NCBI RefSeq assembly: GCF_963921235.1
Contig: NC_086107.1
Location: 94,056,001 to 94,120,000 of the forward strand
DNA from: Mobula hypostoma
Lineage: Eukaryota
DNA length: 64,000 nucleotides
Direction of reading: 5' to 3'
Below are positions 914 through 57,994 of the stretch, piece after piece. The notes beneath the pieces were generated by a model. That model was given only the letters and a program-made list of their open reading frames with translations. It searched no databases and was not told where the DNA came from. A program made the translations under genes and the position numbers. Numbering within the stretch: position 1 is the stretch's first letter; the number at the start of each line of letters is the position of its first letter.

Positions 914-1083
914 CGTCACTCTTCTTCTGCACCTTCTTCTTCTTCTTCAGTCTCTTCAACATGCCCCGAAGGTCAGTGATACCATACTGGAAGGCGATTT
1001 TCTCGTAGTCACACGGCTTGGCATTCTTCAGGATTTCCCAAACATCAACCTCTTCCTTTGAAGGAGCCTCAGTTTTGGCCTCT
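914..1083 (-). CDS. MyBP-C exon, M-domain tri-helix bundle
   Basis: ttttaaaccag|AGAGGCC ... AGTGACG|gtgagt; 170 nt; [56 protein letters not shown]. Confidence 0.95.
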
Positions 1084-4000
1084 CTGGTTTAAAAGTGACA
1101 AAAGCTGGTGAAGTAAATCAGTCTCTCTCTCTCTCTCTCTACTTCCCTCCTTCCCTCTTTCTCTCTCTCTCCCCTTCCCTCCTTCTCTATCTCTCTCTCT
1201 CTACTTCCCTCCTTCCCTCTCTCTCCTTCCCTCCTTCCTTCTCTCTCCTTCCCTCCTTCCCTCTTTCTCTCTCTCTCCCCCCTTCCCTCCTTCTCTCTCC
1301 TTCTCTCTCCCTCTCATCACAAAAGACTGCAGACACTGGAATCTGGATCAACGAAAAACAAGATGAGGAACTTAGTGGGTCTGGCTGCATCTGTGGAAGG
1401 AAGTTCATTTTTCAGTCAATTGAGTTGAGGGATGTCAACCCAAAACATAGACTATTCTTTTTCCAGTCATTTTAAGAGAGAAGGTCCAATTACGAGTTGT
1501 TTCTCCTTAAGCTCCTCTTGTCTCTTTATCTGGCTCAGCATCGAAGTGCGTATAAGAATTCGATCACAGCACAGAGCCAAGCCCATTGGCCCAGGGCGTC
1601 TGTGCTGAACACGGTGAACACATTAACATCATGCTTTACAGCACCAGTGATCAGTAAAAGAACCCTTAGGGGAAAGTGATCATAATATGATCAAATTCTC
1701 CCTGAATGAGGACTGTGGTGGGTTAGTGGGTGGAGGTTTTGATCAGCCTTACTGCTTGGGGAAAGCACCTGTGTTTGTGACTACCTATCACCTACCTTTT
1801 CTTTAGAAGTCCACTGAAATCCAGCTCGCCTGCGTCCTCTTTGGTCTCTCCCCTGCAAGTGAAAGGAGCAAAGGTTCAGCCAACAGTCTACATCATCCCT
1901 GACGCAACGGAATGTGGAAATCTGGAGCAGCGCGCACAAAACGCTGGCGGAACTCAGCAGGTCAGGCAGAGGCAGAATCAGGTTTACTATCACTGGCGTG
2001 TGTGGTGGAATGTGTTGGTTTGCAGTAGCAGTATAGGTGATGTATAGAACAATTACGATAAGAAATATGAACAAAATAAATAAGTAGTGTCAGAAGTGGA
2101 TTAATGTTCACGAGTTCATGAACCGTACAGAAATCCGATGGTGGAGGGGAAGAAGCTGTTCCTGAAACGTGAGCGTGTGTCTTCAGGCTCCTGGCTGGTA
2201 GTAATGAGAAGAGGGTCCTCAAGGATGGATACTGTCTTCTTGAGGCTTTGCCTTTTGAAGACGCCCTCAATTCTATGGAGACTAGTGCCCACGATGGAGC
2301 TGGCAGAACCTAGAATCCTCTGCAGCTTTTTTCGATCCTGTGCAGTGCGCCCCCCGCCCCCCAAAGCCAGACACTGATGTAACCAGTCTCCACGATACAT
2401 CCATGGAGATTTTCTAGAATCTTTAGTGACATACCAGATCTCCTCAAACTCCAAATTAAATCTGTGCAGCATCTGTGGAGGGAAAGGGGCAGTGGTCGTT
2501 TCAATCCTGATGAAGGGTCTCGGCTTGAAACGTCGACCTCTTTTACCTCCACAGATGCCACCCATCTTCCTTGGTCACCTCACCAGCTCTGCCATCCCTC
2601 CAAAGCTCGCCATCTTAATCCAAAGGTGCCAATTCTTTCTTACCCTGAAGTAATGGAAAACACATAACAGGAGGCAGGCCATACCGTCCCAGAAATCTGC
2701 TGCTACACTCCTGGGTCTTAATCTAGAGGCCCACCTGAGTGCATTCCCTCCGTCTCCAAAGATCTCTTGACCTCAGCTTCAGACATACTCAGCGACTGAA
2801 TATTCACAGAGAGTTTAAAGGTTTACAGAGAATGAGGTGAGAATTTTTTTAAAATGAGCTGAAGGTGGGACCAGTGCAGAGGAGTAGCAGATGGTCAGCA
2901 CGGATTTAATGGGTCAAAGGGCCTCTTTCAGTCCTGTGTCTCTCTACGGCGGAAGGAGTTTGAATATTCTTGAGGCAGAGAGCAATAGGAGGCTGAGTGC
3001 AGGGATAGATGCTTGCCAGGGGCAGAGAGGGGTGGCCATCGCCCGGTCCGTCACAGGCACACACTCCCCACCACTGAAAGTATCTACAGGAGCTGCTGCG
3101 TAGAGAGGGAGCATCTGTCACCAAGGATCCCCACCCTCCGGGTCAGGCCATCTTTTCGCTGCTACCATGGGGCAGGAGGTACAGAAGCCTGAAGACCCAC
3201 AAGACCTGGTTCAGGGAAGTATACAGAACAACAGTAGCAACAGAACACTACGGACGCCTCTTGCACTACCATGGACTTGTCCCTGAAGGTCTGCTTTTGC
3301 ACTAAAGCATTGTCTTAAACACCTTTTGTCACTATCTTGTGAAGCTTATGTCTATGTTGCGTAGTTTATGTCTGTACCCACATGGCTGCGAAACAGGTGT
3401 TTCATTGTCCCCGAACCTCACCATACATGTGCACGTGACTAAGAACTTGACTTGAATCTGATCAGCCGTGATTTTATTAGCCGGTTTAGCAGGTTGAGGG
3501 GCAGAGATAAGGCTCTGCTGTGTAATGAACTGAGCTCGAGGCTGTGCGCCTGCTCCGGGCTTCGTGTCTATGGACTCACTTTCATTCTGAATGCTGTCTG
3601 CTTGCCTTTATCATTTGCACGGATTGTGCCTTTTCCCCCTCTCTCTGCGCATTGGATGTCTGTCGGTCTGTTTCTATAACAGGTTCTTGCTTTGAGGCTG
3701 CCTGCAAGCAGACAAATCTCAAGGCTGTATAACTTACACATTCTTTTGATAATTAATGCACTTCGAACTTTGAACTTTGATCGTTAAGTGCATCGCTCCC
3801 AGTTCATATGTAGGCACCTGGTATCAATGGGCGGCACGGCAGCCTATCGGCTATTGTAACGTTTTACGGCACCAGCGGCCCAGGTTCAATTCCCGCCGCT
3901 GTCTGTAAGGAGTTTGTATGTTCTCCCCATGACCACGTGGGTTTCTTCCAGGTGCTCCACTTTCCACCCACATTCCAAAGACGTACAGGTTAGGATTAGT

Positions 4001-7000
4001 AAACTGTGGGCATGACATGTTGGCGCTAGGAGCATGGCAACAGTTGTGGGCTGCCCCCCTCCCCTCCCAGCACACTCTCGGGCTGTGTCGGTCATTGTCG
4101 CAATGGCCCATCTCACTGTATGTTTTGATGTTTTAACGTCATCATCATCATGTGCTGTGTCACATGACATAGGCGATCATGGTCTATCCATGGCCATGAT
4201 TGTTCTTGGCAAACTTATTTACAGAAGTGGTTTGCCATTGCCTTCTTCTGGGCAGTGTCTTTACAAGACAGGTGGCTCCAGCCATTATCGATACTCTTCA
4301 GAGTTTGTCTGCCCAACTTCAGTGGTCACACAACCAGGACTTGTGATGTGTACCGTCTGCTCATACAGCCATCTGCCACCTGCTCCTATGGCTTCACAAG
4401 ACTCTGATCAGGGGGCCAAGGAGGTGCCAAGAGTGTCCTGCAGTCTAGCGGAAGGAAGGAGCGCCTTACCACTCCCTTGGTAGAGACATTTCTCCACCCT
4501 GTCACCCATGTGACAAATAAAGCTAATCCAATTTTGAAAGGGGCAGGAGACAGTGAGATTGCCAAGGTCATCTAACTTGTGCCTTTTAGGGGAGGGCAGC
4601 CACCCATCGAACCAGACACAGGCTGCGGACTGAGAAAACACAGAGAGCTCAGAGGTACTCACGTCCGTTTGAATGCTGTCAGGAGATGGCCAGTCTCTTC
4701 TGCAACTGTGGAGAGATTAGCGAGAACTTAGAGAAGCAGCAGGTCAGAGACAAGCAGCGCGTAGTTATAAAGGGCGGATTTGAAACTAATTGAATCTAGG
4801 CAGGAAGCACGGAGGGCAGTGGCTATAGATGGGTCTTAGAAGGAGATGGAAACAGATTCACTGCTAATAAAATGTTTCAGAGACCCAAGTCAAGAGGGAA
4901 GCAGCTTTTACTCTGGAGATTAAAGATCAAGGATCAACTTTTTTCACCATGTACATGTATTAGGAGTTTGCTGTGGTGTGTTGGCACGACAAGAAAGAAA
5001 AATAACATTTAACAATTATAGAGAATAGAGAATCATACATAAAATAAAGTTAGAGGTTAAAGTACAGAAATGTTATAAAATGTGCATTACACACAAATAC
5101 CACCATGTATTTACAATGATAAACAGCTTTATAAAAAGTGGTTTACAGTCTTTACATTGCAGTGACTGAAGCTATGTAGGAGAGAAGGGTTAGTGTGGGT
5201 TGAAAGATCAGCCCAACATCAATGGGCTGAAGGGCCTGTAGTGCTCTGGAATGTTCTACGTTCTATGAAGGGCTTAAATAGAAAACAGTGAATTGAACAA
5301 GCAAATCCGATTGCTGCTTTAATTTACACTGCAGTATTAGGTCAGCGCGTAAGTGACTGAAAAGTCATTTTAGATTAGGGGTAAAGTGTGCAAAGGAGGG
5401 TCAGAAACAGACCCTGTTCAGGAACAGAGAAGAGTGCTTCAGGAAGAGAAGGAGGGTTTCTTTCGGGGCTGGGAGTGAATTCAAAGGGACCAAATGGCAT
5501 CTTCGACATCTATCTGTAAACCTCAACATTGGGGATGGGGGTTCCTCGTCGATCAGGGAGAAGACCTGACTGGGCACAAACTCGTCCCGGAGGCACGAGG
5601 GATAGCAGGTGCCGGAATTTGAGGCAGCACACAACATGGTGGAGGAACTCAGCAGGCCAGGGAGCATCTGTGGGAAGGAAATGGACAGTCTACCTACCAG
5701 GTTGAGACCCTGCCTCTGGACTCATCTCTTAGATGAGGGAGAGAGAAAGTGTGTGCATGTACGTGTGTGTTTTAGCATCTGCAGAGTAGCTGTAGAGACA
5801 ACAGTTAGGTCAGACTAAGAGATAATAATAACCACTGGGGCTGGGGTCCTGGAAAAGCCCCAAATACCTACTGCGACACAAGATATTCTGCAGATGCTGG
5901 GAACCTTGAGCAAACCACACAAAATGCAAGAGGAACTCAGCAAGTCAGGCACCTTTCATAGATGTTGCCCAGGTATCTCCTGCTGGGAGACCCAGAGACC
6001 AAGGGAACCAGAGGGCATCATCCACGATAACGTTCTTACCTTCAACGTTCAGGTCGAACGCCACACTGTCAAACTGATCTTTCGAGGTCACCTCGCACCT
6101 GTAACTACCTGCACATATCTTGTCAGCTTTCGTGATCTTCATCTCGTACGTGTAGACCTGCGGAGAGGGAGCTGTTACTTGCACTGGTCCCGGCTGCACG
6201 CCCTCCTCCCCGCCGGCTCTCGGGCTGAGACCTCCTGCCTTTCTTCCCAGCACCACCCAGGGCTCCGAACCTCGCAAGTAAGTTCGACCATTTATTTCCC
6301 TGTGTAAGGGCAGCACATTAGCGTAAAGCTGGTACCGTACCAGCAATCACCGTCCAGGGTGGCAACGCTGACAGGCTGTCCAGCACAATTCTCAGGGATT
6401 ACATTTGGCGCAAACAATGCATTTAATAATAGGTTTTGATGTAACATAGAAACATAGAAATCTACAGCACATTACAGGCCCTTCGGCCCACAATGTTGTG
6501 CCGACCATGTAAACTACTCTAGAAACTGCCTAGAATTTCCCTAGCGCATAGACCTCTATTGTTCTAAGCTCCATGTACCTGTCTAAGAGTCTCTTGAAAG
6601 ACCTTATTGTATCCACCTCTACCACCTTTGCTGGCAGTACCTTCCATGCACCCACCACTCTCTGTGTGAAAAACTTACCTCTGACATCCCCCCATCTCAG
6701 CGGGAGGAGAAGATGGTGGCGTGCCTACGTGTGCGCAGCCCTCCAGTGAAAAATGATATCGTATCTGTTAAATAGGGGCCGTGGACAATTCTGATTTGAT
6801 GGAGAATGGGCGTGAAAGCACAGAGGAACATCTGGAGAAATTTCTGAAACGCCTGTTCACTGCTGTCATTATTGTGTGGTCAGGAATCTTTCGACGGGTA
6901 GGCCTCAAAATCCCCGGCCTTGCCTGCTTTTGGCGACTGAGAAGGAGGTCGAATTGTTCGGACAGAGATGGCGCTCAGTACTCGCTGTCGGAGAGCTGAT

Positions 7001-10000
7001 CAGAGCTCGAAGTTTTCGGATGACTGAGAGTCGGATTGTGGTCGGCATGGCAGGGAGAGTTTTTCTTCCTTCTCCCGTCTGCGTGAGATGTGGGACATTT
7101 GAGAAACTTTGAACTTTACTGTGCTCATGGACTTCTTCATCAAGTTATGGTATTGTGCACTGTTGTAACTATATGTTATAATTATGTGGTTTTGTCAGTT
7201 TTTTCAGTCTTGGTCTGTCCTGTGTTTTGTGATATCACACCGGAGGAAGTAATGTATCATTTCTTAATGCATGCATTACTAAATGACAATAAAAGAGGAC
7301 TACATATCTTCATAATCTAAATACTTCCAAGCACCTTAAAACTATGCCTCCTCGTGTTAGCCATTTCAGCCCTGGGGAAAAGCCTCTGGCTGTCCACATG
7401 ATCAATGCCTCTCATCATCTTATACACCTTTATCAGTCACCGCTCATCCTCCGCCGCTCCAAGGAGCGAAGGCCAAGTTCACTCGACCTGTTCTCATAAG
7501 GCATGCTCCCCAATCCAGGCAACGTCCTTGTGAATCTCCTATCATGTACATGTGATAGATAAAACTAGTCTTTCTTTCTTCCTTCCTTTTCTTTGTAGCA
7601 CCTGTGATCACCGGCACCAGCCGAGCCGCCTTCTCCAATGTATATAGAGAAAGGTGCCAGAAAAGGGCCAGTAACATCATGAAGGATCCCACCCACCCTG
7701 CTCAGGGACTGCTCGTCCCACTCCCATCAGGGAGGAGGCTACGTAGCATCCACGCCAGGACCACCAGACTCAAAAACAGCTACTTTCCCCAAGCAGTAAG
7801 GCTGATCTACACCTCCACCACTACTTTATTATTTCCCGCCAGTCACCTTATCTATAGCCTGGCGTCACTTTATGGACATACAATTGATCTATGTGGATGG
7901 GTTATCTTATGTATTTTCTTATTGTTGATTTTTATTAATGTTATTGACTTGTTTATCTTTTGTGGGGTTTTTTTGTGCTGAATCAGATCTGGAGTAACAA
8001 TTATTTTGTTCTTACAGGCAATGACGCTAAACAACCTTGAATGGCGGATTATTGATCTGGGTTCAATTCCAGCACTACCTGCAAGGAGTTTGTATATTCT
8101 CCCCGCGAACCGTATGGTTTCCCTCCAGGTGCTCCGGTTTCCTCGGCTACCTCCATCTCTCCAACACAAGGAGAAAGTATCTCAGACCCACGTGCTCAAT
8201 CCTTCTCAGAATTCCCGTCTCTCAGGAACATTCATTCTCATTTGTCTATCCAGCAAGGCCACTAACCCCCAGAAAGGCTAACTCTTCCTGTCGGGAGAGA
8301 GGGGTGCCGACACAAAGGGACAAAGCACCCCTCCTTGTCCTGTGACTTCAACACATCAGCACACGGCCTCAAGCGAGGTCATTCTGTGCAGAGACCCCAG
8401 ACTCGCGTTTGCCTTTTTGCCAGATTGCTCGCTGAACTGGTTGAGCATCAAGCTTTTCTTAAATGTTTGGCCCATATCCCTCTAAATCCATCCCATGGAT
8501 CAGTGCAACTCTCTTTCAAATGTTGCTATGGAATCATGGAGCACTACAGCACAGAAACAGGCTCTTTGGGCAAGCTAGGCCATCACATACTGTTATTCTG
8601 CTTGGTCTCATCTACTGCAACTGGATCATAGCCCTCCCATCCCTTGTACATCCAAGCATCTCTTAAACATTGAAATCAAACCCACATCCACCACTTCTGC
8701 TGGTAGCTTGTTCCATCCTCTGGTTGAAGAAGCTTCCCCCCCACTCACCCCCAAGATTCTGCGCAGAGGCCCCAGCCTCACCTTTGCATTGCTGTCGAAT
8801 TCCTCCCTGAACTGGTAGACCATCCCGGCCTTGCTCTTCAGATCCAACCATTTGCCCTTGAACCACTTGATGGACGGCTTCTTCAAAAGGCTGGAGGAGT
8901 CCACCTTGGCCAAGAACGTGACGGCTTCACCTGTCAACCAAAAGACAAGAGCTGCCTCAGTCCACACCGCTGTTATTGCCATTGCTTGGGGTACAGAGAA
9001 AGGGGGTAGAAGTTCAGAGGAGATAATAGGAGGACCTTCTTCACCCAGAGTGGTGAGTACCCAGAATGCACTACCATAGAGAGCGGTGGAAGCAGAGTTG
9101 CTGTCAGCAGTTGAGAATTATCTACACAGGGCACTTGAATCATCCCGGCACATGATCCTGGAGATTTCAGCATGGGATCTGGGAATACAGACCCATAATT
9201 CCTTGGAAGTGGCGTCACAGGTAAATAGGGTCATAAAGAAAGCTTTTGGCACATTGGCCTTCATAAATCAATGTATCGAGTACAGGAGATAGGATGTTAT
9301 GCTGAAGTTGTATAAAATGTTGGTGAGGCCTAACTTGGAGCATTCTGTGCAGTTCTGGTAACCACGTACAGGAAAGATGCAAATAAGGTTGAAAGAGTGC
9401 AGAGAAAACGTACAATGATGTTGCTGGGACTCGAGGGCCTGAGTTATAGGGAAAGGCTGAATAGGTTAGGGTTTTATTCCCTGGAGTGAAGGATAATGTG
9501 GGGAGATTTGATAGAGGTTAAACAAAATTATAAGGGGTATAGATGGGTAAATACAAGCAGGCTTTTCGCACTGATGTTGAGTGGGACTAGAACTAGAGGT
9601 CATAGGATAAAGGTGAAAGGTGAAATATTTAAAGGGAACTTGAGGGGAAACGCCTTCACTCAGAGGAGGTGAGAGTGCGGAACGAGCTGCCAGTGGAAGT
9701 GGTGAATGTGGATTCGATTTCAACATTTAAGAGAAGTTTGGACAAGTACATGGATGAGAGGGGTATGGTCCAGGTTCAGGTCAACGGGACGAGGCAGAGT
9801 AGCAGTTCAACATGGACTAGATAGGCCGAAGGGCCTGTATCTGTGCTGAAGTGCTCTATGACTCTATAGGAATAATGCAGATGGATACCCTTGGTATGGC
9901 ATCCAAATGGTGGGCCAAATGGCCGATTCCTAAGTTGTACTATGTATCAATCCTCTAGCACTATGTATCCTCTAAATTTGGTAGTGAATGAGTGGAGTCC

Positions 10001-16000: not shown

Positions 16001-19000
16001 AGGGTTTGTGCTCGTATCTCTGAATCAATGATCAGCCTAATCCAATAACTTAACCGCCACACCATCTCTACCCACCTTAAGCTCTCAACTATTAAGACAA
16101 GTACAGTTTTGTGCAAGAGTCTTGGGCCTGTATAGACAGCTAGGGTGCCTAAGCTGTTTGCACAGTACTGTATTTGTCAATGTGAAGCAGGGAGTGAACT
16201 TGTCAATCCGGCAAGAGCAAAAGACGTTGGGAATAGCGAGAGTGGAGCCCCATGGGAGCAGTGTTGGACAGGTGGCAGAGGAGAAGTGCCCAGGGGTAGG
16301 ATATGGGTGCAGACACCAGGCAATGTTATTTGAGTTCAAACAATTGGGTTATTGATCATTACAGAATGTTTCTCTGGTGCTTCCCACTCCTTCCACTCTC
16401 CCCTTCCCTTTTCCCAACTGTGATTCCCCTCTCCCTTCCCCTTTTCCTAACCATGATTCCTCCCTCGCTGCCCCCTTCCCACTCTCAGTCCACAATAGAG
16501 ACCCATATCAGAATCAGATTTATCATCACTCATATACATCATGAAATTTGTTTTTTTTTGTGGCAGCAGTACAGTGCAATACATAAAATTACTACAGTAC
16601 TGTGCAAAAGTCATAGGCACTCTGTCTATTTATATGTGCACAGTAATGTACATCAACCAAACCTTGTCCCTTATCGTGCACTATTTTCGGGGGCAGAGAT
16701 CAACATTAAGTTCTTCCTGACTTTCTAAAAAACATAGAATACTACAGCGCACAATGTCGTGTCAAACTTTAAACCTACTCTAAGAATAATCAAAGCCCTC
16801 TTTCCTACAGAGCCCTCCTGAATGATCTGGCTGTAAGTTTAGGACACAGCGTATACATCACTGTGGATTTCCCTCCCACCAGCAGAAGGCATTGCACCCT
16901 ACACCCTCCTCCAAACCCCCTGCATAAGCTAACCGCTAACCGCTAACCTCTAACTCCATGAGTTGTTCAACTTCCTCGGCAGACTCACCAGCAATCACAT
17001 TCTTTGTTTCGGGCTTTACAATGAAGAGACCAGTGAGTTGTTGGTGGGCATCCTCAGGGGCCGTATCTGTAAAGAACAAAATATTTCAGGTGCTTTAGAA
17101 TTAAGTCTGGGAACTTTGTATGTACATAATTTAACACAGTCCGCTGAATTAACCCTCTGAAAGTCATAATACACCGTTTACAAAAGAAAACTAGATAAGT
17201 ATCAATAAATATTGTCAGCAAACCCGTACTCTTGCTTTTGGTCTCCTTCGGGTTAAGCTACAGATCAGGAAGGTCAAAGGTAGGGGTTAGCGCCATCTGA
17301 GGTCACATTGGAAACATACAGGTCCTGAAGAAGGGTCTCGGCCTGAAATGTTGACTGTTTCTTCCTTTCCATAGATGCTGCCTGACCTACTGAGTTAACT
17401 AGCATTGTGTGTGTTGATTGGGATGATAGGATAGGCTTGGAATCAAGGATCAACTTTATTCGCCACAGACATTTACACGTATAAATGTGTGTCTGAGTGT
17501 ACTGGAGGCTGAAGAAGACGGCCTGTCTTGGGGTCAGAGGATTGTGTCTGTACGTAGGTGGGATGGAGGGGCGGGACGGGACATGCTTTGTCTCTGTTGT
17601 TTTGCTGCTTGCTGTGTTCTGCATTGTTCTGCCGAGCACTGTGGGCTTGCAATGTTGGTTGGCACCGGAATGTGTGCAGGCCATCCCCAGCTCAGGTGTG
17701 TTGGTTGTTAGCGCAAACAACACATTTCACTGTACATTTTGGCGTACGCATGATAAATAAATTCTAACTTTGATTCTTGAATCTTGAGTGTATTAGGAAC
17801 TTGCTGTGGTTTGTCGGTCAGGGTGCAACATTGAAAACTGGCTGATCAGATTAACAGCCTGGGGAAAGAAACTTCTAAATTTGGTTAGATAATAGAGCTG
17901 AGGTTTAGGTGTAGGTTAAATTTGGTTTTAGATAATTGTATAAAGTAAGGTCTCAGAGTTTTTGTGATCAACAATCTGTTCACCAATGGGCAGATGATAA
18001 AATGGTAATTGAGTTAAATGTCAAATACCAAATGGCACAGAGGGTAGGGCCACTGCCTCACAGAACTAGAGACGCGGGTTTGATCCTGACCTCTGGCGCT
18101 GGCTGTGTGCACGTTCTCCCTGCGACCCCCGTGGGTTTCCACCAAGTGCTCTGGAATCCTCCCACAACCCAATGAAGTACTAGCTGATAGGTAAATTGGC
18201 CACAGCAAATTATCTCGGGAGCAGAGGAGACTTGGTGGGTATAGGGAGAATGAGATGGGATATTTATATTCAATACCGAATATCAAAAAGCCCAGAAAGA
18301 GTGGACGTGGAGAGAAGTTTGTAGAAGAAAAATACTTTTTGTTAATATGCCAGTGTTGGAGGCCATTGGCCAAACATGAGGCTTAGCGGTTAGCATAACG
18401 TTCTATAGCACCGGCTGTAAGATCAAGGTTAAATTCACACCGCTGTCCGCAAGGAGTTTGTACGTTCTCCCCATGACCACTTGGGTTTCCTCCGAGTGCT
18501 CTGGTTTCCTCCCACATTCCAGAGACGTACGGTTGGGGTTCGTGAGTTATGGGCATGCTATATTGTCGCCACATGCATGGCGACACTCATCAGCTGCACC
18601 CAGCACCTTATTAAGACTTTACTCCCTGAGATGTACAAACGTAGAATGAGAGGGAGACCTGGCAGAGCTGTATAAAATCAGGAGGAGCATACACAGGTTG
18701 AATACACACAGTCTTTTTCCCAGGGAAGGGGATTCGAAAACCAGAGGGCGAAAATCTAAAAGGGACCCAAGAAGCAACTTCTTCACACAGAGGGTGGACC
18801 ATATATGGAATAAACTGCCAGAGGAACATACATTTAAAAAGATACTTGGACGCGTACATGGATAGGAAAGTTTTAGAGCAGAGGTTCCCAGCCCTGTTAA
18901 TGCCATAGACCCCTACCACTAACCGAGGACACGCCAAGTTGGGAACCCCTGGTTTAGGGGGATTTTGGACCAAAGGCAAGCAAATCAAGTTAAGTTAGAC

Positions 19001-25000: not shown

Positions 25001-28000
25001 CCCCCCCCCCCCAACAACCCCCGGGTGGCATGGCCAATAGAGAGGGTGTAATTTTACTGTGATTGGAGAAAAGTACGGGGGGATGTTGGAGCTTTTTGTT
25101 TGACACAGAGAGTGGCGGGTGCGTGGAGTGGTGGTCGCAGAGGCAGATACACTGGGGACATTTAAGAAGCCCTTCAATAGGTACATGGTTGATGGAAAAA
25201 TGGAGGACTATGTAGGAGAAAAGAGTTCGATTGATCTTGGAATGAGTTAAAAGGTCGGCACAACATTATGGGCTGAAGAGTCTGTACTGTGCTGTAGTGT
25301 TCTATGTTCTATGAAACACTGCATCAGGATATGTTCGTTGCTCTGGATTCCAGTGTATGTAGTCACTATATTCTACGTTCCATATCATATGTTTCACTGC
25401 ACACCTGTCTGCTGCCTGAAAGGTCCTCAATGAAATATCCACCCCTTTCAGATCTCGCCAATATTCTCTGTACACCATATGAACTGAAAGCTCACAAAAG
25501 GTACAGACCCAACAGCTGGTAGCCATGGGGTTGACTTTGACTTGGGGTGACTGCGTTGGATCAGACTGCTGGTACTGCTCGCTCCCAATAGAGAGGCTTG
25601 GCAATGAAGTCAATGACATAGGAAAGATCTACTTCAGGAAGGATGTGGAAGTTCTGAAGAGGATGCAGAAGCAGTTTACCAGGATTAGATTAGATTCGCT
25701 TTATTCTATTATTTAGTACAGTATCAGGCCCTTCTGGCCCAACGAGCCAGCACCGCCCACTACACCCATGTGACCAATCAACCGGTACATCCTTGGAATG
25801 TGAGAGGAAACCAGAGCACTTGAAGGAATTCCATGCGGTCACGTGGAGAACATACAAACTCCTTACAGACAACGGCAGGAATTAAACTCTGGCCACAGAT
25901 TGCTGGCTGACGCTGCAGAAAAGCATTACAATTATCACTACACCACCTCACCACCCCACTACACCACCACGCTTTCCAGAGCACTGTCTGGATTAGAGGG
26001 CAGGGGTTCTAACAAGTGGCTGGCCAAACTTCAGCTGTTTTCAGTGGAGTACCGGAGACTGACCTCCAGGAGGACCACAACCTCGTCGTAGGGTTTGGAG
26101 GCTTGTGTGTCTCAATGACCCGGAGAGCTACGTTGGCTGGAGTCAGGACTTTATGCTTTGGTTCTTGGTAGGGCCACCCACCCATGCCAAACAGGTCAAA
26201 GGGTAGAGGCCAGACTAGGAGTGGTCCACTGGTCCTCCAGTTTCGGGGGTTCAGCTCAGGGCTAACAACCTTGACTGTTACGGAAACGGCAATGAAGAAT
26301 CCTTCTACATCTGAGTACGACGGTATTCCTGAGTTTCCACCCGGGACTTGCATGACTGACAGTAGTGAAAACCGAGAGAAAGCTACTGACACGATGAAGG
26401 AAGCCCTGAACACCACCAGAGACGAAGGACCTTCATTGCTGCCCGAAACACCAGCAGTGTATTGAGCAGTAGTTCAGTAAGTAACGGAGACTGAGGAGAG
26501 ACCTGATAGAAGTTTGTAAGATTGAGAAGTACATACCGGACAGCCAGCAACTTTTCCCCAGGGTCAATTGTCTAATATTATAGGGCACACGCTTAAAGTG
26601 AGAGGGGGCAAGTTCAAAGGAGATGTGCAGGGTAAGTTTTTTTTACACATAGAGTGGTCGGAGCTGGAATGTGCTCCCAGAGGTGGTGGTAGAGACAAGT
26701 ACAGCAGAGACACTTAACAGGCTCTCAGACGGGCACATGGATGTGTAGAGAATGGAGGAATATGGATCGTGTGCAGGCAGAAATGATGAGGGTAACTGGG
26801 CTTCATTAGTGAAATTACTTTGACATATGGCAGGCTGAAAGGCCTATTCGTGGATGTACCATTCTAAACCCACTTCTGTTGTCAACACCAGGCACATGCC
26901 AGCCAACACCAGGCACATGCCAGCCATCACCAGGCACATGCCAGCCATCACCAGGCATGTGCCAGCCAACACCAGGCACACCAGGTACGTGCCAGCCATC
27001 ACCCACCACTTGGACTCATCTCTGGCATGGCCGCTGCGAGAAATCACATTGTCCAGTGACAAAACAGAGTGAACAGTATGCTGTGTTGGTCCAAAAACAA
27101 ATGTTTCCACCAATATATTGAAAAAGTTGCAGAGAAAGAGCTGGTATTCAGGGGTTTAGAAGACTTTCTAATCGCACTCAATATAAAAGTTCATGAAGGG
27201 AATCTATGTGATCAACCCAAGTCTAGTCCAACAAGCTCTTCCCACCCCTGTTCCCTCAACATTCGGGTATCATCAGAGAATCATGCAGCAGAGGTGAAGA
27301 CCACTTCAAAGTAAAATCAGCAGGAATTTCCAAAGGTCAGTTGGATAGATATCTGAAATTGGATTAACTGCAGAGGAAAGTGGAGATGTTTTGAAGGGCT
27401 GACATGGAAATGATGGGTAGATTGCCCCCCAACCCCCGCTGCACGATTCTCTAGTCTTGTAATCAATGGAGAAAAATGAATCCAAATGCTTACCATCTTC
27501 AGGGAGTTCAGTGGACTCTTCTGCAGCTTTAAAACAAAGGAAAGTGTTAAATACAGTCAATAATTAATGAACATTCAAGAAACATCAAAGACAATTTCTT
27601 ACATCCAGAAAGGGAAAAGGTTTCATCTGTTGAATTTAGAAGGGGAAATTAACGGAATTATAAAGTATCTTTGTTCCAACTAGTTTAGCAATATTTTATT
27701 TTTCTCTGGGACTGACTACCCAGTCACAATCCAGAAGCATCCCAAGAAAGCATGCACCTTTGCTCCATCCACAACAAGCAGGACTTCCCGGTAGTCAGCC
27801 ATTTTAATTCCAATCCCCATTCCCATTCCGACATGCTGGTCCATTGCCACGATGAGGCCTTCCTCAGGTTGGAGGAGCAACGTCCCATATCCCGCCCGGG
27901 CAGCCTCCAACCTGATGGCATGTTTATCGATTTCTCTAACTTCTGGTAAGTGCTCCCCCTTCCCCCTTCTCTCTTTTCTATTCACCATTCTGGAGTCCCT

Positions 28001-31000
28001 CTTGCTACTTCTCTTCTCCTCCACTACCCATCACCTCCTTCCCCTTCTCCCCATGTCTACTCTCCTGTCCTATCAGATTCTTTCTTCTTCAGCCCTTTAC
28101 CTCTTCCACCTATCACCTCCCAGCTTCCCATTACAGCACCCTTCCCCCACCCATCCACCTTCCCCCTCACCTGGTCTCAGTTATCACCTGTCAGTTCTCC
28201 TCCCCCCCCCACCTTTTTATTCTGTCTTCTGTCCACCTTCCTTTCCAGTCCTGATGAAGGGTACCAGTCTGAAACATCAATTCTTTATTCATTTCAATAG
28301 ATGCTGCGGCATTTTGTGTGTGTTACCATACTCCAAAAGTCAGGAGTGACTGTCAACTCTGAATGGTAGCGCATTCATGACGATTGCTGCCATTACACAA
28401 TGTCCCGCCTCTCTAGCTTCCCCCCCACCAATACACCCCAGTGATTGATCAGGAGGGGACAGGATTCACACAGAGACCACACTCCAGTCCCAAATGTCCA
28501 CAGGGGAAACCTTGTGGGAAGAATCCATCGACACTGCCCTAGGCAATAAGCAGCTACTCAGGGAAAATACCCATGCCATCCATCTGGATAACTGACGCAC
28601 GTCCCCCGTGTTCAGTCATCTTGTCTGCATTGACATAACATATGTTCAATTGACAAGCCTTCAGGACTCAAACTGTTATCGTAGTCTTCCATTCCAAAGA
28701 TCTGGTTAATATTTCTAGAGAGATTTGGTGAGAAATTTCAAAGCAACTTTCTCTCTTCTGTCTTTTAAATATCCTTAGAATTACCATGACCTTAAAAACC
28801 TTAAGCAGCTAACATAATCAAAGATACCACCCACCTTGGCTACTCTCTCTTCTCCACACCCATCCCTCAGGCAGAAGATACAAAAGCCTGAAAGTATGTA
28901 ACATCAATATATATAACCATATAACAATTACAGCACGGAAACAGGCCATCTGCGCCCTTCTGGTCCGTGCCGAACTCTTACTCAAGTTCAATAGATCCAT
29001 TTAATATCAGAGAATGTATACTATATACAACCTGAAATTCTTACTCTTTGCAGACATCCTCAAAACAGAAGAAAAAACCCAAGAGTTAACGCCAGAGAAA
29101 ACATAAGAGCCCCCAAGCCCCCTGCCCCCTCCTCCCACGTACAAACAGCAGCAAGTAGCTTCAACCCTCCCAACTCCACCCACCCCCCTTCTAGCATAAA
29201 GCATCATCATTCCCACCACCCAGCATGCAAGCAACACCAAAGTCTCCAAAGAGAGACCATGGTTGACAGTCCATCAAAAACTAACTGTTCACTCCTTCCA
29301 CAGGGACAGGGGAGATCGCAGTCGCTACTTTGATGTTACGGTCAGTCTGAAGCGTTGCTTTTTATTTCCGGTTCTTTAATTCAAGAATCGGCAAATTGAT
29401 TACCGAGTGCAGAGCCCTCCTACAGCCACTCTCGCCGTCTTCCATGTTCCGGCACCCGCTGCGCTTCAGTACGCAACACCGGCGAGATTTCGCGTCCACA
29501 GGGGCCGGACAAGCCCCGAAGGTGCCTGACTTCAGGCCTAACCAGGACGTGGTAAAACGCAATCGATCAGGTTCAAGGACAACTTGTATTCCACTGATAT
29601 AAGACTATAGAATAGTTCCCTAGTACAATAAAATAGACTCTTGATCTTACAATCTACCTTGTCTACCTACAAGAACTTTCTCTCTAACTAAAACTTTCTT
29701 CGGCATTACTTTTCCCTCGTACTACCTCAATGTATTGTTGTAATGAAGTGGTCTGTATGGATGTCATGTAATACTGTTTTCACTGTACCTCGGTATGTGA
29801 CAATAATAGACCAATTAAAGTCCCAATACTTTTGCCATTAACTTTTTTTTAAGCCATGTTAAGGTCAAACTGTTCTCGAATAATCCTAGGATGTCTTTGG
29901 GTCAGCTTTCCTTGTGGGATTCTGTTAGTTGATCTAACAATCAATAACCCTGTTGAACACAGTTGAGGTCTGTGTGATTCAGAAGACCAACTCCTCATAG
30001 CAGAGACAGAGACATTGGGAATTGTGAAGGATCCTTCTTGGTGGTGTCCCATTTGCATAAGAATATAGGCAATTATGTGCAGGTAATATCTCATCATCAT
30101 GCTCTGCCATTGAATGAGATCTTGGCTATCTTCTGCCCACTGGCCAGAACATTCCACCATGTCACCATAGCCAATGTTATGGCCACACCAACACTGAACA
30201 TACACAATGACTGAGTAATCAGAGGCACAGATCTCCCTAGATTTAGCATCATCTGCAAAACACTTCCCATTGCCTCGACAAAGCAACCCAACATATTCAA
30301 GGACCCCTCCCGTTCCCCTCACCTCTATTGTGTGGAAGAGATAAAAGCTTGTGAACATGTGCCATCTGGCTCAAGTACAGCTTCTTTTCTACTGCTATCT
30401 GCCTCTTGAATGGATCTTTCACACACTAAAAAATAAACTCTTCATTTCCCAATCTACCTGTATTGGTCTAGAGCTGGGGTTCCCAACCTAGCGTCACGGA
30501 CCCCTTGCTAAATGGTGTTGGTCCATGGCATTAAAAAGTTGGGAACCCCGGGTCTAGAGTGACACACACAAAATACTGGTCAGGCAACATCTATGAAAAG
30601 GAACAAAGAGTCGACGTTTCGAGCCTAGACCCTTCACCAGGACAATTGTGTTTACTTGTCTGCCTGCTCAGCACTTTCTCTGTAACAATATATTCTGTCC
30701 TCCTTTCTACTGTCTCGATGTACTTACGTAAGGACTGATCTGACAGGATGGTGTACAAACAAATCTCTTCACTATTTCTCAGTACATCCCAATTCCAATT
30801 TGTTTCCAACTATTCCCAAAGATGAGAATCAACCAGTCTTGCAAAATCTGGTATCCAAAGCTTTCTCAAAATCATGAAGTGTTGTGTTTCAGTAGGAAAA
30901 GAAAGGCAAGCAGAGCAAAGGTCTTACCAGGGGCTGCTACAGGCTTGGTCTTCGCTGCAATGGAAAAACATGATTAATGAACAGATAATACTTTCCTCTG

Positions 31001-42754: not shown

Positions 42755-42789
<35 letters not shown>

Positions 42790-43107
42790 AAAAATTTAAA
42801 GGCATCCATTAGTCTTACGAGACCATGGATCTGCGCCTGGAAAATCTTCACTCTCCAGGGCGCAGGCCTGGGCAAGGTTGTATGGAAGACCGGTAGTTGC
42901 CCATGCTGCAAGTCTCCCCTCTCCACGCCACTGATGTTGTCCAAGGGAAGGGCATTAGGACCCATACAGCTTGGCACCGGTGTCGTCGCAGAGCAATGTG
43001 TGGTTAAGTGCCTTGCTCAAGGAAACAACACACTGCCTCGGCTGGGGCTCGAACTCACGACCTTCAGGTCACGAGTCCAATGCCTTAACCACTTGGCCAC
43101 GTGCCCC

Positions 43108-43170
<63 letters not shown>

Positions 43171-43451
43171 GTATATGGTGGTGGCAACCCCGTCATCCGT
43201 TAGTCTCGCGAGACCATGGATCTGCGCCTGGAAAGTCTTGCTTCAGTCTGTGTTGGTAGAGCAGCGTCTGTTGTGGCTGTAGAGGCCCACACGGGAGTGA
43301 CAGTCTCGGCTGCAGCGACTGCACTTGAAGGCGCTGTCCTCCATTGTTGTCTTGGTGCTGTTTTTCCGACGAGTGCGCTTTTCTTCAGCAGCAAGTCTCA
43401 GCTTCTCTTCTCCTCTTTTTAGACCTCTGCGTAGTTCCAGTCTCCAGTGTA

Positions 43452-43485
<34 letters not shown>

Positions 43486-46400: not shown

Positions 46401-48467
46401 TATACAAGACCATAGATCACAGCAGTGGTCACATCTCATAAAAGCAGCCTACTGGTGGCAAAGGTCCTTGGGTCTGAGGTTACGGAAAGCCTGTGGTACT
46501 TGAGGATGGGTTCGATTCCTGAAAGTACTGATATTATCTTTCCCCTTTTCAGAACCGCTGGGCACCATCACATTACTCAGCAGCTCTGTCTGAGCACCTT
46601 CACTCCTTATAGAAGGGGAATTAGTCATGGCCAAGGCTGATACTTAATACCTCAACCTGACAGTTTTGTGCCTCATCAGCAATTGGGGACAAGAATAAAC
46701 TCGGGTCCCACAGCGTAAACTTTAACTTTAAAAGAAAAGTTCTCTCTGCTCAATCCTCACAACGTTCCCTTTTGAGTTCTGGAATGGCTCCTTAGCACAA
46801 CAAGGTGGAACATTGACCTCACAAAGTGCCTCGTTGTGACCTTGCACCCTTATTGTTTGCCTGCTCTGCACTTTCTCCACAGCTGTTACACTTTATTCTG
46901 CATTGTCATTGTTTGACCTTGTACGACCTCAATGCAACCTTTGTAATGAATTGATCTGTATGGATAGTACACTCAGTGACCTCTTAATCATGTATGCCCC
47001 GTTCCACGGAGAGCATGTTCATGGTCTTCTGCTGCTGTCACCCATCCACTTCAAGGTTCAACTTGTTGTACATTCAGAGATGGCTTTCTGCACGCCACCA
47101 TTACTATCGCCTTCCTGCCAGCTTGAACCAGGCTGGCCTTTCTCCTCTGACCTCTCTCATCACAAAACTGCTTCTTACTGGATTTTTTTTCTCTGTTTTT
47201 CACACCACTCTGTAAACGTTAGGGACTGCAGTGCACGAAAATCCCAGGAGATCGGCAGTTTATGAGATACTCAAACCACCCCGTCTGGCACCAACAATCA
47301 CTCCACGGTCAAAGTCGCTCAGATCAAATTTCTTCCCCATTCTGATGTTTGGTCTGAACAACAACTGAACCTCTTGACCATGAGTGCATGCTTTAATGCA
47401 TTGAGTTGCTGCCACATGATTGGCTAATGAAATATTTGCATTAACGAGCAGGTGTACAGGTGTAAGAGGCCACTGTGTGTATATGGATGGTACAAGACAA
47501 GTTTTCCACTGTCCCTTGGTATATGAGACAACAATAAACCAATTTACCAATTTCACCATCAGATTAACACAAAAAAAATCTGGAATTATATTCTTACTTA
47601 GAAATCTTCCTAACTTGCTGATGAAGGGTTTCAACCCAAAATGTCAACTGTTTATTCTTCTCTATAGATGCTGTTTGACTTCCCAATTTCCTCCAGCATT
47701 TTGTGTTTGTTGCTCAGGATTTCCAGCACCTGCAGAATTCCTTGACCCCTTGTTTTCTTACACAGGACAGACCAGCATCAAATACTAACGCAACACAGAA
47801 ATTATCTTGCAGCCAGGTTTATGAGATGGGGCAGTGCAAAGGGGCACTGCGTGAAAATCAAGGTACTCGCAGATGCTGGAAACTCGAAGTAAAATCAGGT
47901 AATGTAAGAAACACTCAGCAGGTCAGGCAGCATATGTGGAGAAATTCAACTGTTCAGGTTGAAGACCATATTTTAGGGCTGGGCACAACAGAGGGAGAGA
48001 AAGAAAACTGTTCCTTTCTCTCTCAGTTCTGATCGGGAACATGAACTGTTTCTGTCTCCAGAGCATTTGCAAGGGAACCGCTTTCCCAAACAGCGCCGAT
48101 TCTGCCGGGTCATTTCCACCCCCCACCAATATTCACCCCTCTGAAAACTCTCCAGTGGATCTCCTTCCAGTCAAAAAGGCGACGCCAAACGCGCCCTCCA
48201 CCCATTCGCGCTCCCAATGCAGTCTACAATCTCACCCCTCGCTTCTCTGCTGAATCCAAGTGCTTTGAGTTTAAAACGGGCAAAAGGCATCCTCGAGTAA
48301 TTTTGCTTTCCCGCTACAAAAAAAAACGAACTTGCATCGCCCAAAAAATGTTTAATTTGTGAGTGTAAATCAGAGTTCATGGGAGATAAACTGATCCTTT
48401 GGTCTGCGGCGGTTAATGTGAAGGAGGGAGGCTGCGAGTCCCTACCTGGTTTCTTCGGCTCCGGCAT
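914..48467 (-). CDS. Myosin-binding protein C family gene, 5' part (C0, PA linker, C1, M-domain); 10 coding exons, continues beyond window start; paralog unresolved (MYBPC3-like architecture)
   Basis: join(48446-48467,31042-31305,30928-30954,27494-27526,16989-17066,8782-8930,6040-6157,4663-4705,1796-1852,914-1083) gives an open frame [17 protein letters not shown]...KWFKGKW...YRCEV...[11 protein letters not shown]...[21 protein letters not shown]. All introns are GT-AG with matching phases, and the motifs are diagnostic of MyBP-C. Confidence 0.95.
1122..1315. repeat. CT-rich low-complexity tract
   Basis: Nearly pure pyrimidine on + strand. Confidence 0.9.
1796..1852 (-). CDS. MyBP-C exon, M-domain ([19 protein letters not shown])
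   Basis: cacttgcag|GGGAGAG ... AAGAAAAG|gtaggt; 57 nt, phase 2-2. Confidence 0.93.
2503..2538 (+). ncRNA. Minimal type-I hammerhead-like motif in a Penelope-derived repeat
   Basis: aatc CTGATGA agg-gtctcgg-ctt GAAA CGTC gacc; core intact, stem I partly degenerate. Confidence 0.55.
4663..4705 (-). CDS. MyBP-C exon, M-domain start ([15 protein letters not shown])
   Basis: ctctccacag|TTGCAG ... AAACGGAC|gtgagt; 43 nt, phase 1-2; matches the LLSAFRRT / LESFKRT motif. Confidence 0.9.
6040..6157 (-). CDS. MyBP-C exon, C1 second half
   Basis: ctctccgcag|GTCTAC ... GTTGAAG|gtaaga; 118 nt; [39 protein letters not shown]. Confidence 0.95.
6443..7540 (-). mobile_element. CR1 LINE 3' end, interrupted by a younger repeat at about 6700-7320
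   Basis: (acatagaa) tail repeats at 6444-6460, then typical CR1 3' sequence on the minus strand that resumes at 7321. Confidence 0.7.
6700..7320 (+). mobile_element. ~620-690 bp non-autonomous retroelement family, copy 1
   Basis: Starts gggaggagaagatgg and ends cataatctaa; similar along its length to 11640-12298 and 33408-34094. Confidence 0.7.
7600..8045 (+). mobile_element. Rex1/L2-type LINE 3' fragment
   Basis: ORF 7604 [48 protein letters not shown] is the C-terminal motif of fish non-LTR RT proteins. Confidence 0.75.
8782..8930 (-). CDS. MyBP-C exon, C1 first half
   Basis: ttgacag|GTGAAGCC ... GCAAAG|gtgagg; 149 nt; [36 protein letters not shown]... Confidence 0.95.
9170..9870 (+). 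mobile_element. CR1 LINE 3' fragment
   Basis: [40 protein letters not shown]-terminus with stops; ends in ctctatgactctat tail. Confidence 0.85.
10255..10742. mobile_element. Tc1-type composite MITE, copy 1
   Basis: CAGTACTGT/AAAAGTCTTAGGCAC-type termini and an internal sequence shared with the copies at 16103, 21920, 38800 and 62367. Confidence 0.7.
11640..12298 (+). mobile_element. Non-autonomous retroelement family, copy 2, with (ATCTA)n tail
   Basis: Similar to 6700-7320; ends aatctaatctaatctaatctaatctaatc. Confidence 0.7.
12613..12690. mobile_element. ~78-bp hAT MITE
   Basis: TIRs caggtgttcccaac / gttaggaacacctg; 8-bp flanks ctctactg / ctccactg. Confidence 0.75.
14108..14857 (-). mobile_element. 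PIF/Harbinger deletion derivative
   Basis: 18-bp TIRs AGGTTGATTCATACTTGT / ACAAGTATAAATCAGCCT (2 mismatches); TTA on both flanks; transposase remnant [35 protein letters not shown]. Confidence 0.85.
15185..15540 (-). mobile_element. Well-preserved CR1 LINE 3' end
   Basis: (CATAGAAA)n tail; ORF ...[36 protein letters not shown]. Confidence 0.85.
16103..16650. mobile_element. Tc1-type composite MITE, copy 2
   Basis: Same termini and body as 21920-22464. Confidence 0.7.
16989..17066 (-). CDS. MyBP-C exon, linker end and C1 start ([26 protein letters not shown])
   Basis: ttgttctttacag|ATACGG ... ATTGCTG|gtgagt; 78 nt; GLFxxKP strand-A motif of C1. Confidence 0.9.
18030..19490. mobile_element. 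Cluster of tRNA-derived SINEs, a CR1 fragment and a small hAT MITE (~18878-18952)
   Basis: Repeated ggttcaattccc...ggagtttgtacgttctccccgtgac...gggtttcctcc...cccacattcc SINE core. Confidence 0.65.
19508..19900 (-). promoter_or_regulatory. Candidate internal promoter / alternative first exon
   Basis: Non-repeat island. The minus strand reads cagcgtaaaATGG|gtaaga (ATG at 19517-19515). E-box CAGTTG 19549-19554, CATTTAAATG 19574-19583, octamer ATGCAAAT 19598-19605. Confidence 0.4.
21920..22464. mobile_element. Tc1-type composite MITE, best-preserved copy
   Basis: TA|CAGTACTGTGCAAAAGTCTTAG ... CTAAGACTTTTGCACAGTACTG|TA; each end is itself a small palindrome (21920-21986, 22367-22464). Confidence 0.85.
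23331..24031 (+). mobile_element. 5'-truncated RTE-clade LINE with TSD
   Basis: ORF 23532-23978 [37 protein letters not shown]; (GAC)n tail; 11-bp direct repeat ACACTAGTTAA at 23320-23330 and 24032-24042. Confidence 0.9.
26065..26470 (+). mobile_element. Probable RTE (Expander/Rex3-like) 5'-region derivative inserted in a CR1 fragment
   Basis: Interrupts a CR1 fragment (ggagtaccggagactga / acggagactgaggagagacctg). Sequence style resembles RTE 5'UTRs (from memory, not searched). Confidence 0.4.
26884..27003. repeat. 21-bp minisatellite (CACCAGGCACATGCCAGCCAW), about 5 copies
   Basis: Direct reading. Confidence 0.9.
27494..27526 (-). CDS. MyBP-C 33-nt micro-exon, linker ([11 protein letters not shown])
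   Basis: cctttgttttaaag|CTGCAGAAGAGTCCACTGAACTCCCTGAAGATG|gtaagc; phase 1-1; lies in non-repeat sequence. Confidence 0.7.
27750..28325 (+). mobile_element. Penelope-like element 3' end (GIY-YIG C-terminus + terminal repeat)
   Basis: [28 protein letters not shown]...LRLEEQ...[22 protein letters not shown]...GAAA motif at 28251-28274. Confidence 0.8.
30474..30551. mobile_element. 78-bp hAT MITE
   Basis: TIRs ctggggttcccaac / gttgggaaccccgg; perfect 8-bp TSD GTCTAGAG (30466-30473, 30552-30559). Confidence 0.85.
30928..30954 (-). CDS. MyBP-C 27-nt micro-exon, Pro/Ala linker (AKTKPVAAP)
   Basis: tgtttttccattgcag|CGAAGACCAAGCCTGTAGCAGCCCCTG|gtaaga; phase 1-1; 87-nt intron after exon 2. Confidence 0.8.
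31042..31305 (-). CDS. MyBP-C exon 2, C0 Ig domain
   Basis: ccaaccag|CTGGCTTCACTAAG ... GAACCTG|gtttgt; 264 nt; [40 protein letters not shown]...HTLVINDL...KFELQVKEP, colinear with the cardiac C0 domain. Confidence 0.93.
31463..32616 (-). mobile_element. Tc1-like non-autonomous element (transposase N-terminal remnant)
   Basis: TIR cagtggccactttattaggtaca / tgtatctaataaagtg; ORF 31541-31876 [38 protein letters not shown]. Confidence 0.85.
31946..32562. mobile_element. Mariner-type MITE nested in the Tc1 element
   Basis: TA|CGAGGGGTGATTGATAAGTT ... AACTTATCAATCACCCCTCG|TA; long subterminal inverted arms. Confidence 0.9.
32875..34245. repeat. Polypyrimidine low-complexity tract split by a retroelement
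   Basis: C/T-only stretches at 32875-33403 and 34100-34245. Confidence 0.85.
33408..34094 (+). mobile_element. Non-autonomous retroelement family, copy 3
   Basis: gggaggagaagatggcggcgcgacgcagcg ... ataatctaatctaa. Confidence 0.7.
34700..34945. mobile_element. Palindromic mini-element built from two inverted Penelope terminal repeats
   Basis: tgctggaaatct..gcaggtcaggcagcatc..gacgttttgggctgagacccttcatcagga, then the inverted copy ..ctcgaaatgtc..atagatactgcctgac..ctccagca. Confidence 0.65.
37155..37395. repeat. Degenerate ~30-bp tandem repeat rich in GATTGG
   Basis: gggattggcc/gggactggcc-like units recur with ~30-nt period. Confidence 0.75.
38800..39320. mobile_element. Tc1-type composite MITE, copy 4 (reverse orientation)
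   Basis: Reverse complement of the 21920-22464 body; palindromic ends. Confidence 0.75.
39849..40221. repeat. 170-bp inverted repeat with a 33-bp loop containing (TTAGGG)4
   Basis: Arms 39849-40018 and 40052-40221, one mismatch found by eye; TTAGGG x4 at 40028-40051. Confidence 0.95.
40460..41160 (-). mobile_element. Penelope-like element 3' end
   Basis: ORF 40548-41102 [52 protein letters not shown]; terminal repeat with a degenerate hammerhead motif at ~40545-40581. Confidence 0.8.
41335..41883. mobile_element. hAT (Blackjack-type) MITE nested in a Charlie-type hAT element (~41248-42014)
   Basis: TIRs TAAGGTTGCCAAC / GTTGGCAACCCTA; host right end ccggtccacggtgcaaaaaaggttggggacccctg. Confidence 0.7.
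42800..43105 (+). mobile_element. Short RTE-associated/SINE-like repeat
   Basis: ggcatccattagtcttacgagaccatggatctgcgcctgg...ccttaaccacttggccac. Near-identical inverted copy at 62876-63140; fragments at 20745-20812, 24660-24780 and 43195-43237. Confidence 0.65.
43111..43162. repeat. (CA)n microsatellite
   Basis: Direct reading. Confidence 0.95.
43240..43445 (-). mobile_element. RTE LINE 3' fragment
   Basis: [52 protein letters not shown]-terminal zinc-finger-like motif. Confidence 0.8.
44680..45020 (+). mobile_element. Penelope-like terminal repeat
   Basis: Same pyrimidine-rich body and ...gaagggtctcgggccaaaacatcaac...atagatgctgcctggcctgctgag end as 27950-28325. Confidence 0.7.
46968..47480 (-). 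mobile_element. Tc1-like non-autonomous element, copy 2
   Basis: [33 protein letters not shown]; tacactcagtgacc / ggccactgtgtgta ends. Confidence 0.8.
48446..48467 (-). CDS. MyBP-C exon 1 (MPEPKKP, phase 1)
   Basis: ATG CCG GAG CCG AAG AAA CCA G|gtaggg. Resembles the MPEPGKKP first exon of cardiac MyBP-C and lies in a GC-rich unique segment. Confidence 0.85.
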
Positions 48468-57990: not shown

Positions 57991-57994
57991 GACC

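Follow-up and report, generated by a model that had tools for sequence, protein, structure and literature searches.

The C0 immunoglobulin (Ig) domain is described, in the available text of two papers (PMC3069465, PMC9272480), as a cardiac-specific domain in MyBP-C (myosin-binding protein C), studied for hypertrophic cardiomyopathy, and the accessible parts of PMC9272480 and PMC7721898 state that the skeletal MyBP-C isoforms are without it. A 64-kb stretch of DNA from the ray Mobula hypostoma, referred to below as the window, contains a MyBP-C gene in which a C0 domain of the cardiac type precedes an M-domain of skeletal appearance. This raises two questions: which paralogue the gene represents, and how it came to carry C0.

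Gene structure in the window

In a six-frame reading, the MyBP-C gene was found on the minus strand, running from 48467 to 914 in ten exons. The frame of 320 codons is open, without stops, and all nine introns of the model have GT-AG ends. The encoded order is MPEPKKP, the C0 Ig domain, a linker, C1 and the M-domain, which was read as a stretch of 52 residues. The ATG start codon at 48467 and position 914, where the window's last exon stops, are exactly the ends given for this part of the gene by an earlier, sequence-only reading. Three small exons absent from that reading (30954-30928, 27526-27494 and 17066-16989) were added by reading the introns and by tblastn with an ortholog, and complete the frame. 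The exons, all on the minus strand, are:

48446..48467, minus: exon 1, coding part, MPEPKKP plus one base, phase 1 donor; same start in orthologs P0001-P0003 and P0005-P0010
31042..31305, minus: exon 2, 264 nt, encoding the immunoglobulin I-set domain C0, phase 1-1; profile, structure and a run X1 contig with 0 differences
30928..30954, minus: exon 3, Pro/Ala linker micro-exon of 27 nt, AKTKPVAAP; joined to both neighbouring exons in run X1
27494..27526, minus: exon 4, 33-nt linker micro-exon, 11 residues; joint 27526/30928 in runs X1 and X2, joint 17066/27494 in X1, X2 and X3
16989..17066, minus: exon 5, end of the linker and first C1 strands; reading frame, tblastn and run contigs
8782..8930, minus: exon 6, middle of C1, KWFKGKW; reading frame and tblastn
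6040..6157, minus: exon 7, end of C1; reading frame and tblastn
4663..4705, minus: exon 8, start of the M-domain, ending in LLTAFKRT; reading frame
1796..1852, minus: exon 9, M-domain, 19 residues; reading frame
914..1083, minus: exon 10, M-domain tri-helix bundle (THB); Pfam THB, E 2.6e-24

The open frame, the GT-AG introns and the C0 profile score bear out the MPEPKKP exon and the complete C0 exon that the sequence-only reading had recognized. C1 and the tri-helix bundle are seen in the window itself; the part of the gene encoding C2-C10 lies below position 914, beyond the window, and these domains are seen in orthologs only, the closest full-length one (P0001) being 88% identical to the window protein over C1 and the M-domain.

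Identity and fold of the C0 domain

The best single-domain PDB sequence matches of the C0 exon are human cardiac C0 structures (6cxi_M, E 1.9e-18; 2k1m, E 2.1e-18). In the 6cxi alignment, query residues 2-86 align without gaps to human residues 12-96, and the ray and human domains are 42% identical. On a profile made from 15 cardiac-type C0 domains the ray C0 scores 110 bits, with no internal Ig domain exceeding 53 bits in four control proteins. A single-sequence AlphaFold model (pLDDT 38) was set aside; the model used, calculated from a 40-row alignment, has a pLDDT of 96.8. Its top Foldseek match is C0 2k1m (TM 0.89), and titin Ig domains score almost equally, so the modelled fold shows only an intact I-set Ig domain. 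A search of the ESM Atlas returned generic Ig or IGFN1-like clusters only.

Across seven elasmobranch sequences the domain is 78-92% identical, with no insertion or deletion. A search with the C0 exon yielded, among 55 candidates, 10 proteins, each from a shark or ray and 84-92% identical; NCBI gives nine of them the name 'myosin binding protein Ca' or 'fast-type-like'. We take 'Ca' to be the name of zebrafish mybpc2a.

Paralogue assignment

Phylogenetic trees were calculated with C0 and the linker excluded. The C1-C10 alignment consists of 29 chosen rows and 1066 columns, with orthologs standing in for C2-C10 of the window protein; the trees are without mammalian skeletal sequences, and clades are labelled by the names that fish, amphibian, reptile and bird records carry in their source. 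The window protein and four elasmobranch proteins group together (100/100), the window protein pairing with a stingray record (99/95), and this group is sister to six bony-vertebrate fast-type rows (100/99). The cardiac (100/99) and slow (100/100) clades are separate from the fast clade, and the slow clade holds chondrichthyan members of its own; a separate slow-type gene is also present in rays, as seen in protein records. When the window protein is the sole row of its elasmobranch group (196 columns, C1 and M-domain), it again falls in the fast clade (99/98). The trees, a check that the sequence-only reading had proposed, place the window protein in the fast MYBPC2 clade, not with MYBPC3.

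A divergent chondrichthyan MYBPC3, one of the identities suggested by the sequence-only reading, might be drawn to MYBPC2 in such trees. Its C0, the fairly long elasmobranch stem branch (0.21 in the C1-C10 tree) and the finding that the best 120 of 2700 and the best 120 of 2314 matches contain no named chondrichthyan cardiac-type record, maybe an effect of score cut-offs, are all in keeping with that idea, and its short M-domain and insert-free C5 are common in non-mammalian cardiac records and hence do not exclude it. Against it, the approximately unbiased (AU) test rejects joining the elasmobranch group to the cardiac clade on C1-C10 (15 rows, LG+G4 quick tree; p 3.7e-11), on C7-C10 with a mixture model (p 0.005) and with the window protein only (196 columns; p 0.041). 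P0001 shows 69-70% identity with the fast-type proteins of lungfish, coelacanth, gar and reedfish versus about 60% with cardiac-type ones (best 120 of 2700). Percent identity alone cannot settle orthology: over C1 and the M-domain, several cardiac records (up to 61.5%) rank above the fast-type ones of amniotes (53-56%). We consider a divergent MYBPC3 very improbable. Identity as MYBPC1 was likewise rejected by AU tests, with p 3.5e-103 on C1-C10 and 0.031 for the window protein.

The sequence-only reading had also considered a full-length member of the lineage that gave MyBP-H. According to the available text of PMC11461142, MyBP-H is a fourth early clade, whose N-terminal domains are thought to have been lost; a full-length survivor is thus conceivable. 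In the C7-C10 tree of orthologs, fast-type and elasmobranch proteins group at 100/100, but five MyBP-H-like proteins, labelled by architecture only, form a clade apart (97/96), and joining the elasmobranch genes to them is rejected (p 0.0012). Rooting this tree on the distant P0243 places an unsupported root inside the cardiac rows. That the window gene belongs to the MyBP-H lineage, or is a fourth MyBP-C paralogue, is to us hardly credible.

We put the probability that the window gene is the 5' third of a MYBPC2 (fast-skeletal MyBP-C) ortholog at about 95%. The remaining suggestion of the sequence-only reading, a MYBPC2-like paralogue with an ancestral C0, is the one that the C0-free trees and AU tests support.

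Three further MyBP-Cs are deep-branching (P0149, P0172 and P0365, one of them named Lampetra), and C0 is present in both of those whose N-terminus is known; the MYBPC2 clade has P0149 as a weakly supported sister (88/87).

M-domain and insert patterns

The M-domain motif that had been read as skeletal-type is indeed present in the window, but it is not diagnostic of skeletal isoforms outside mammals: GELDFSxLL(K/R) occurs in 40 of 42 cardiac-named records picked from the best-120 lists, and the exact 11-residue string of the window in one of the 42 (lungfish). A long phosphorylation-type insert after the FRR motif was found in five of 32 pattern-parsed cardiac-named records, and the C5 insert in three of the ten cardiac-clade rows aligned and in none of seven elasmobranch orthologs. 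As many non-mammalian cardiac records are also without them, absent M-domain and C5 inserts are a weak test against MYBPC3. Both the M-domain motif and the C5 insert were rejected as paralogue diagnostics, their patterns occurring in non-mammalian cardiac records; MYBPC3 proteins outside mammals commonly have a 'skeletal-looking' M-domain, and orthology rests on the trees. The window M-domain has no cardiac insert and no protein kinase A (PKA) consensus site. Strings of the type (R/K)(R/K)x(S/T) are absent from it, the only two in the protein being inside Ig domains.

C0 in other MyBP-C proteins

Among 12 full-length elasmobranch MYBPC2 ortholog records, C0 is present in nine, at 107-113 bits; two start inside C0 and one lacks exactly C0. 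Neither best-120 list contains a chimaera fast-type record, maybe an effect of score cut-offs. The profile found no C0 in any of 94 annotated bony-vertebrate fast-type records, classed by name or by exclusion, 22 of which begin with residues other than MP and may lack their 5' end. Absences of this kind are from annotated protein records, not genomes, and all C0 counts are of annotated isoform representatives, which are non-independent.

Slow-type proteins also carry the domain. P0152, a slow-type protein from the cluster representatives, begins with C0, and its C1, C2 and C3 best match slow-type structures. Residues 15-420 of P0152 were used as a search query and the N-terminal parts of the best 120 of 2314 matches were scored on the C0 profile; the query region contained C0, so these counts are biased upward. 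Within the best 120, intact C0 domains of more than 100 bits were found in all 14 chondrichthyan slow-type records (12 species, including a chimaera), in four of four sturgeon records and in three of three lungfish records; the C0-bearing records are P0152 and P0272-P0291. None of five coelacanth and none of 20 bird or alligator slow-type records in the same set of 120 scored as having C0. All 20 amphibian slow-type records of this set have a gapped C0 remnant of 23-49 bits, while 500 shuffles each of two amphibian records gave best scores of 9.3 and 8.9 bits. From these scores, the amphibian MYBPC1 C0 is apparently a domain decaying into a linker while still being translated. The remnant (P0305, P0331, P0342 and 17 more) is Thr/Val-rich and strongest in the caecilian.

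A MyBP-C of Lampetra planeri has a C0 of 113 bits. As the domain is also on slow-type and lamprey records, C0 does not define MYBPC3. Fast and slow C0-bearing records both occur in Narcine, Heterodontus, Heptranchias, Stegostoma and Pristiophorus, their C0 domains being 48-53% alike. The intact slow-type C0 of cartilaginous fishes, sturgeon and lungfish is closer to cardiac C0 (mean 60%) than the fast-type C0 is (48%).

Retention or transfer of C0

By profile score, C0 is shown on members of all three MyBP-C paralogues and on a lamprey gene, which makes an ancestral C0 with repeated loss the simplest history wherever the root lies. On these comparisons, C0 was very probably present before the paralogues split and has been retained in ray MYBPC2. 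Separate losses would have removed it from the MYBPC2 of bony vertebrates and from several lineages of MYBPC1, and in amphibians it would be decaying; its being a single, frame-preserving exon of 264 nt may have eased the losses. The lamprey-rooted tree joins fast with cardiac proteins (100/99), and several independent losses of C0 are therefore needed. The idea in the sequence-only reading that C0 was lost in skeletal isoforms, rather than gained in the cardiac one, is strengthened by the MYBPC1 and lamprey records.

The exon could instead have reached MYBPC2 later, in the elasmobranch stem, through exon shuffling or ectopic gene conversion with MYBPC3 or MYBPC1 as donor. In a C0-only tree of 86 columns, too short to decide between transfer and retention, the elasmobranch fast C0 is nested among cardiac C0s as sister to the coelacanth cardiac C0 (97/96), as a transfer from MYBPC3 would have it; cardiac monophyly (p 0.19) and nesting with the chondrichthyan slow C0 (p 0.098) are both compatible with the AU test, and the absence of C0 from the bony-vertebrate fast-type records would also fit a transfer. 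However, C0 on chondrichthyan, sturgeon and lungfish MYBPC1 and on the lamprey gene predates the paralogues, and no transfer is needed. The split of the C0-only tree into cardiac plus fast versus slow plus lamprey (93/99) agrees with the C1-C10 tree, the elasmobranch fast C0 shares only 48-53% identity with the slow C0 of the same species and 37-57% with bony cardiac C0s, and its position after a phase-1 exon 1 is unchanged. Later transfer is improbable in our judgement, and ancestral retention is preferred.

The C0 of the coelacanth cardiac-type protein P0041 (residues 8-95) shares a TAKEKFEL ending with the elasmobranch MYBPC2 C0, unlike other cardiac C0s. The two may group through noise in so short an alignment, because both keep ancestral states, or through an ancient exon exchange or gene conversion.

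Transcripts and skipping of the C0 exon

Contigs of four of 16 sequencing runs, which are RNA by guess and carry no tissue label, were compared with positions 16800-31500. A contig of run X1 (914 nt, depth 1030) spans the C0 exon with 0 differences; its match extends six bases beyond the C0 acceptor, as expected of the end of exon 1, the compared stretch having stopped short of that exon. The joints 31042/30954, 30928/27526 and 27494/17066 are present in X1 at the same depth, with one synonymous letter differing beside the first of them; this run may derive from the same species or sample. Run X2 contains the joints 30928/27526 and 27494/17066, and run X3, from another organism, the C0 exon with 13 differences and the joint 27494/17066. 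These joints cross canonical introns and the contigs therefore represent spliced transcripts, in which the C0 exon is joined to the downstream linker and C1 exons.

Were the exon a non-functional relic, or a prediction artefact outside the transcript, one might expect ortholog records such as P0012 (below) that do without it, and the runs are contigs of presumed RNA; but the zero-difference X1 contig with its joints over three introns, the occurrence of the exon and one joint in run X3, and the indel-free conservation among seven elasmobranchs leave this reading next to no probability.

With a length of 264 nt and phase 1 on either side, the C0 exon can be skipped in frame. In the Rhinoraja isoform X2 record (P0012, a skate), the exon-1 peptide is joined straight to the linker, without C0. 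Regulated skipping of the exon is a tentative proposal, to which we give somewhat less than an even chance. Differences in contig depth in run X2 were not taken as evidence of skipping, nor was the lack of matching words in run X16 taken as tissue specificity. P0168, a cardiac-clade protein and sister to Xenopus MYBPC3, has an N-terminus without C0 and is a possible C0-skipped cardiac isoform.

Skipping would have a wider role if cartilaginous fishes had no conventional C0-bearing MYBPC3 in use, and C0-bearing MYBPC1 or MYBPC2 isoforms, switched by C0-exon skipping, served heart and skeletal muscle. A model for this is the replacement of the lost TNNI3 by TNNI5 in shark hearts (PMC9825255, available text). 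The sole hint is that neither best-120 list contains a named chondrichthyan cardiac-type record. P0215, a fragment with the C5 insert that lies inside the cardiac clade, its position there without resolution, speaks against it. So do the mybpc3 annotations that presumably exist in sharks, and we find such an arrangement improbable.

Proposed function of the ray C0

According to the accessible text of PMC7721898 and PMC3069465, C8-C10 of MyBP-C bind the thick-filament rod and the N-terminal domains contact myosin; the latter paper, in its available part, reports that human C0 binds the regulatory light chain via a basic surface that requires R35 and K87. In the ray C0 a lysine occupies the positions of both human R35 and K87, W42 and Y79 are kept, and the net charge is +6; in the binding patch a glutamine takes the place of human R17. 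If the ray protein works as human cardiac MyBP-C does, C8-C10 would hold it on the thick filament and C0, basic and N-terminal, would be an extra contact for the regulatory light chain of myosin, actin or both, ahead of C1 and the M-domain. Such binding is somewhat favoured by the likeness to the human domain. The contact would stand outside the PKA switch of the mammalian heart: because the M-domain is without a PKA consensus site, tuning is likelier to be by exon inclusion than by adrenergic phosphorylation.

Comparison with known systems

The ray gene resembles fast-skeletal MyBP-C (MYBPC2, zebrafish mybpc2a/b) in being its ortholog by tree, in its short M-domain without the cardiac insert, and in having orthologs without the C5 insert; it differs in its intact C0, found in none of the 94 bony-vertebrate fast-type records. 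With the C0 of cardiac MYBPC3 (2K1M, 6CXI) it shares position, length, I-set fold and a basic patch (equivalents of K35, K87 and K89), but the ray domain is on another paralogue, shows 42% identity and the R17 to Q replacement with respect to human C0, and precedes an M-domain without PKA consensus.

A parallel is offered by the N-terminal extension of troponin I (TNNI3/TNNI5; Joyce et al., PMC9825255, available text), also a 'cardiac-unique' module that is probably ancestral once cartilaginous fishes are sampled. It concerns a different protein family, and that study, in its accessible part, had synteny and heart expression, whereas the ray MyBP-C is known from sequence comparison. Shaffer and Gillis (2010), as paraphrased in the available text of PMC9272480, regard cardiac MyBP-C as the ancestral form, which likewise implies that C0 could be ancestral; as paraphrased there, however, fast groups with slow and C0 is absent from both, while here C0 is on both and fast groups with cardiac.

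The proteins are already in public annotation as fast-type or slow-type; their domain content and its evolutionary reading appear to be unreported. A full-text literature search, with most subscription journals and supplements outside its scope, found no report of C0 on a non-cardiac paralogue; an alignment in Shaffer and Gillis, a paper covered through its paraphrase, or elsewhere could already show it. A ray MYBPC2 with an intact, transcribed C0 overturns the commonly repeated statement that the domain is heart-specific for non-mammalian vertebrates. If C0 is ancestral on the skeletal paralogues of sharks, rays, sturgeons and lungfishes, the question becomes why it was repeatedly lost from skeletal isoforms, not what the heart gained. 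Natural test proteins are at hand in the ray MYBPC2, with C0 before an M-domain lacking a PKA site, and in proteins whose C0 is intact, decayed (as in amphibian MYBPC1) or absent, a graded series.

Surroundings of the gene

We take the neighbourhood of human MYBPC2 to be SPIB/POLD1. Upstream of the ray gene, at 48.7-64 kb, there are 73 open frames of at least 70 amino acids, only four of which have Pfam matches (three reverse transcriptases and one ALKBH8_N on an apparent retroelement fragment); no neighbouring gene and no ETS-type motif were found in this interval. Interspersed repeats and retroelement fragments are dense in 48700-64000 and in the introns. Other features of the window are:

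56406-56678, 60578-60952 and 63434-63643: reverse-transcriptase matches (Pfam)
about 48800-49450: pyrimidine-rich tract just upstream of exon 1
26883-26980, 37158-37385 and 61080-61264: tandem repeats
39849-40221: near-perfect inverted repeat in intron 1, with 170-nt arms, 99% complementary and 33 nt apart
40026-40053: telomere-type (GGTTAG)n run between the arms of the inverted repeat

The inverted repeat in intron 1 reflects either a fold-back event in the recent past or an error of assembly.
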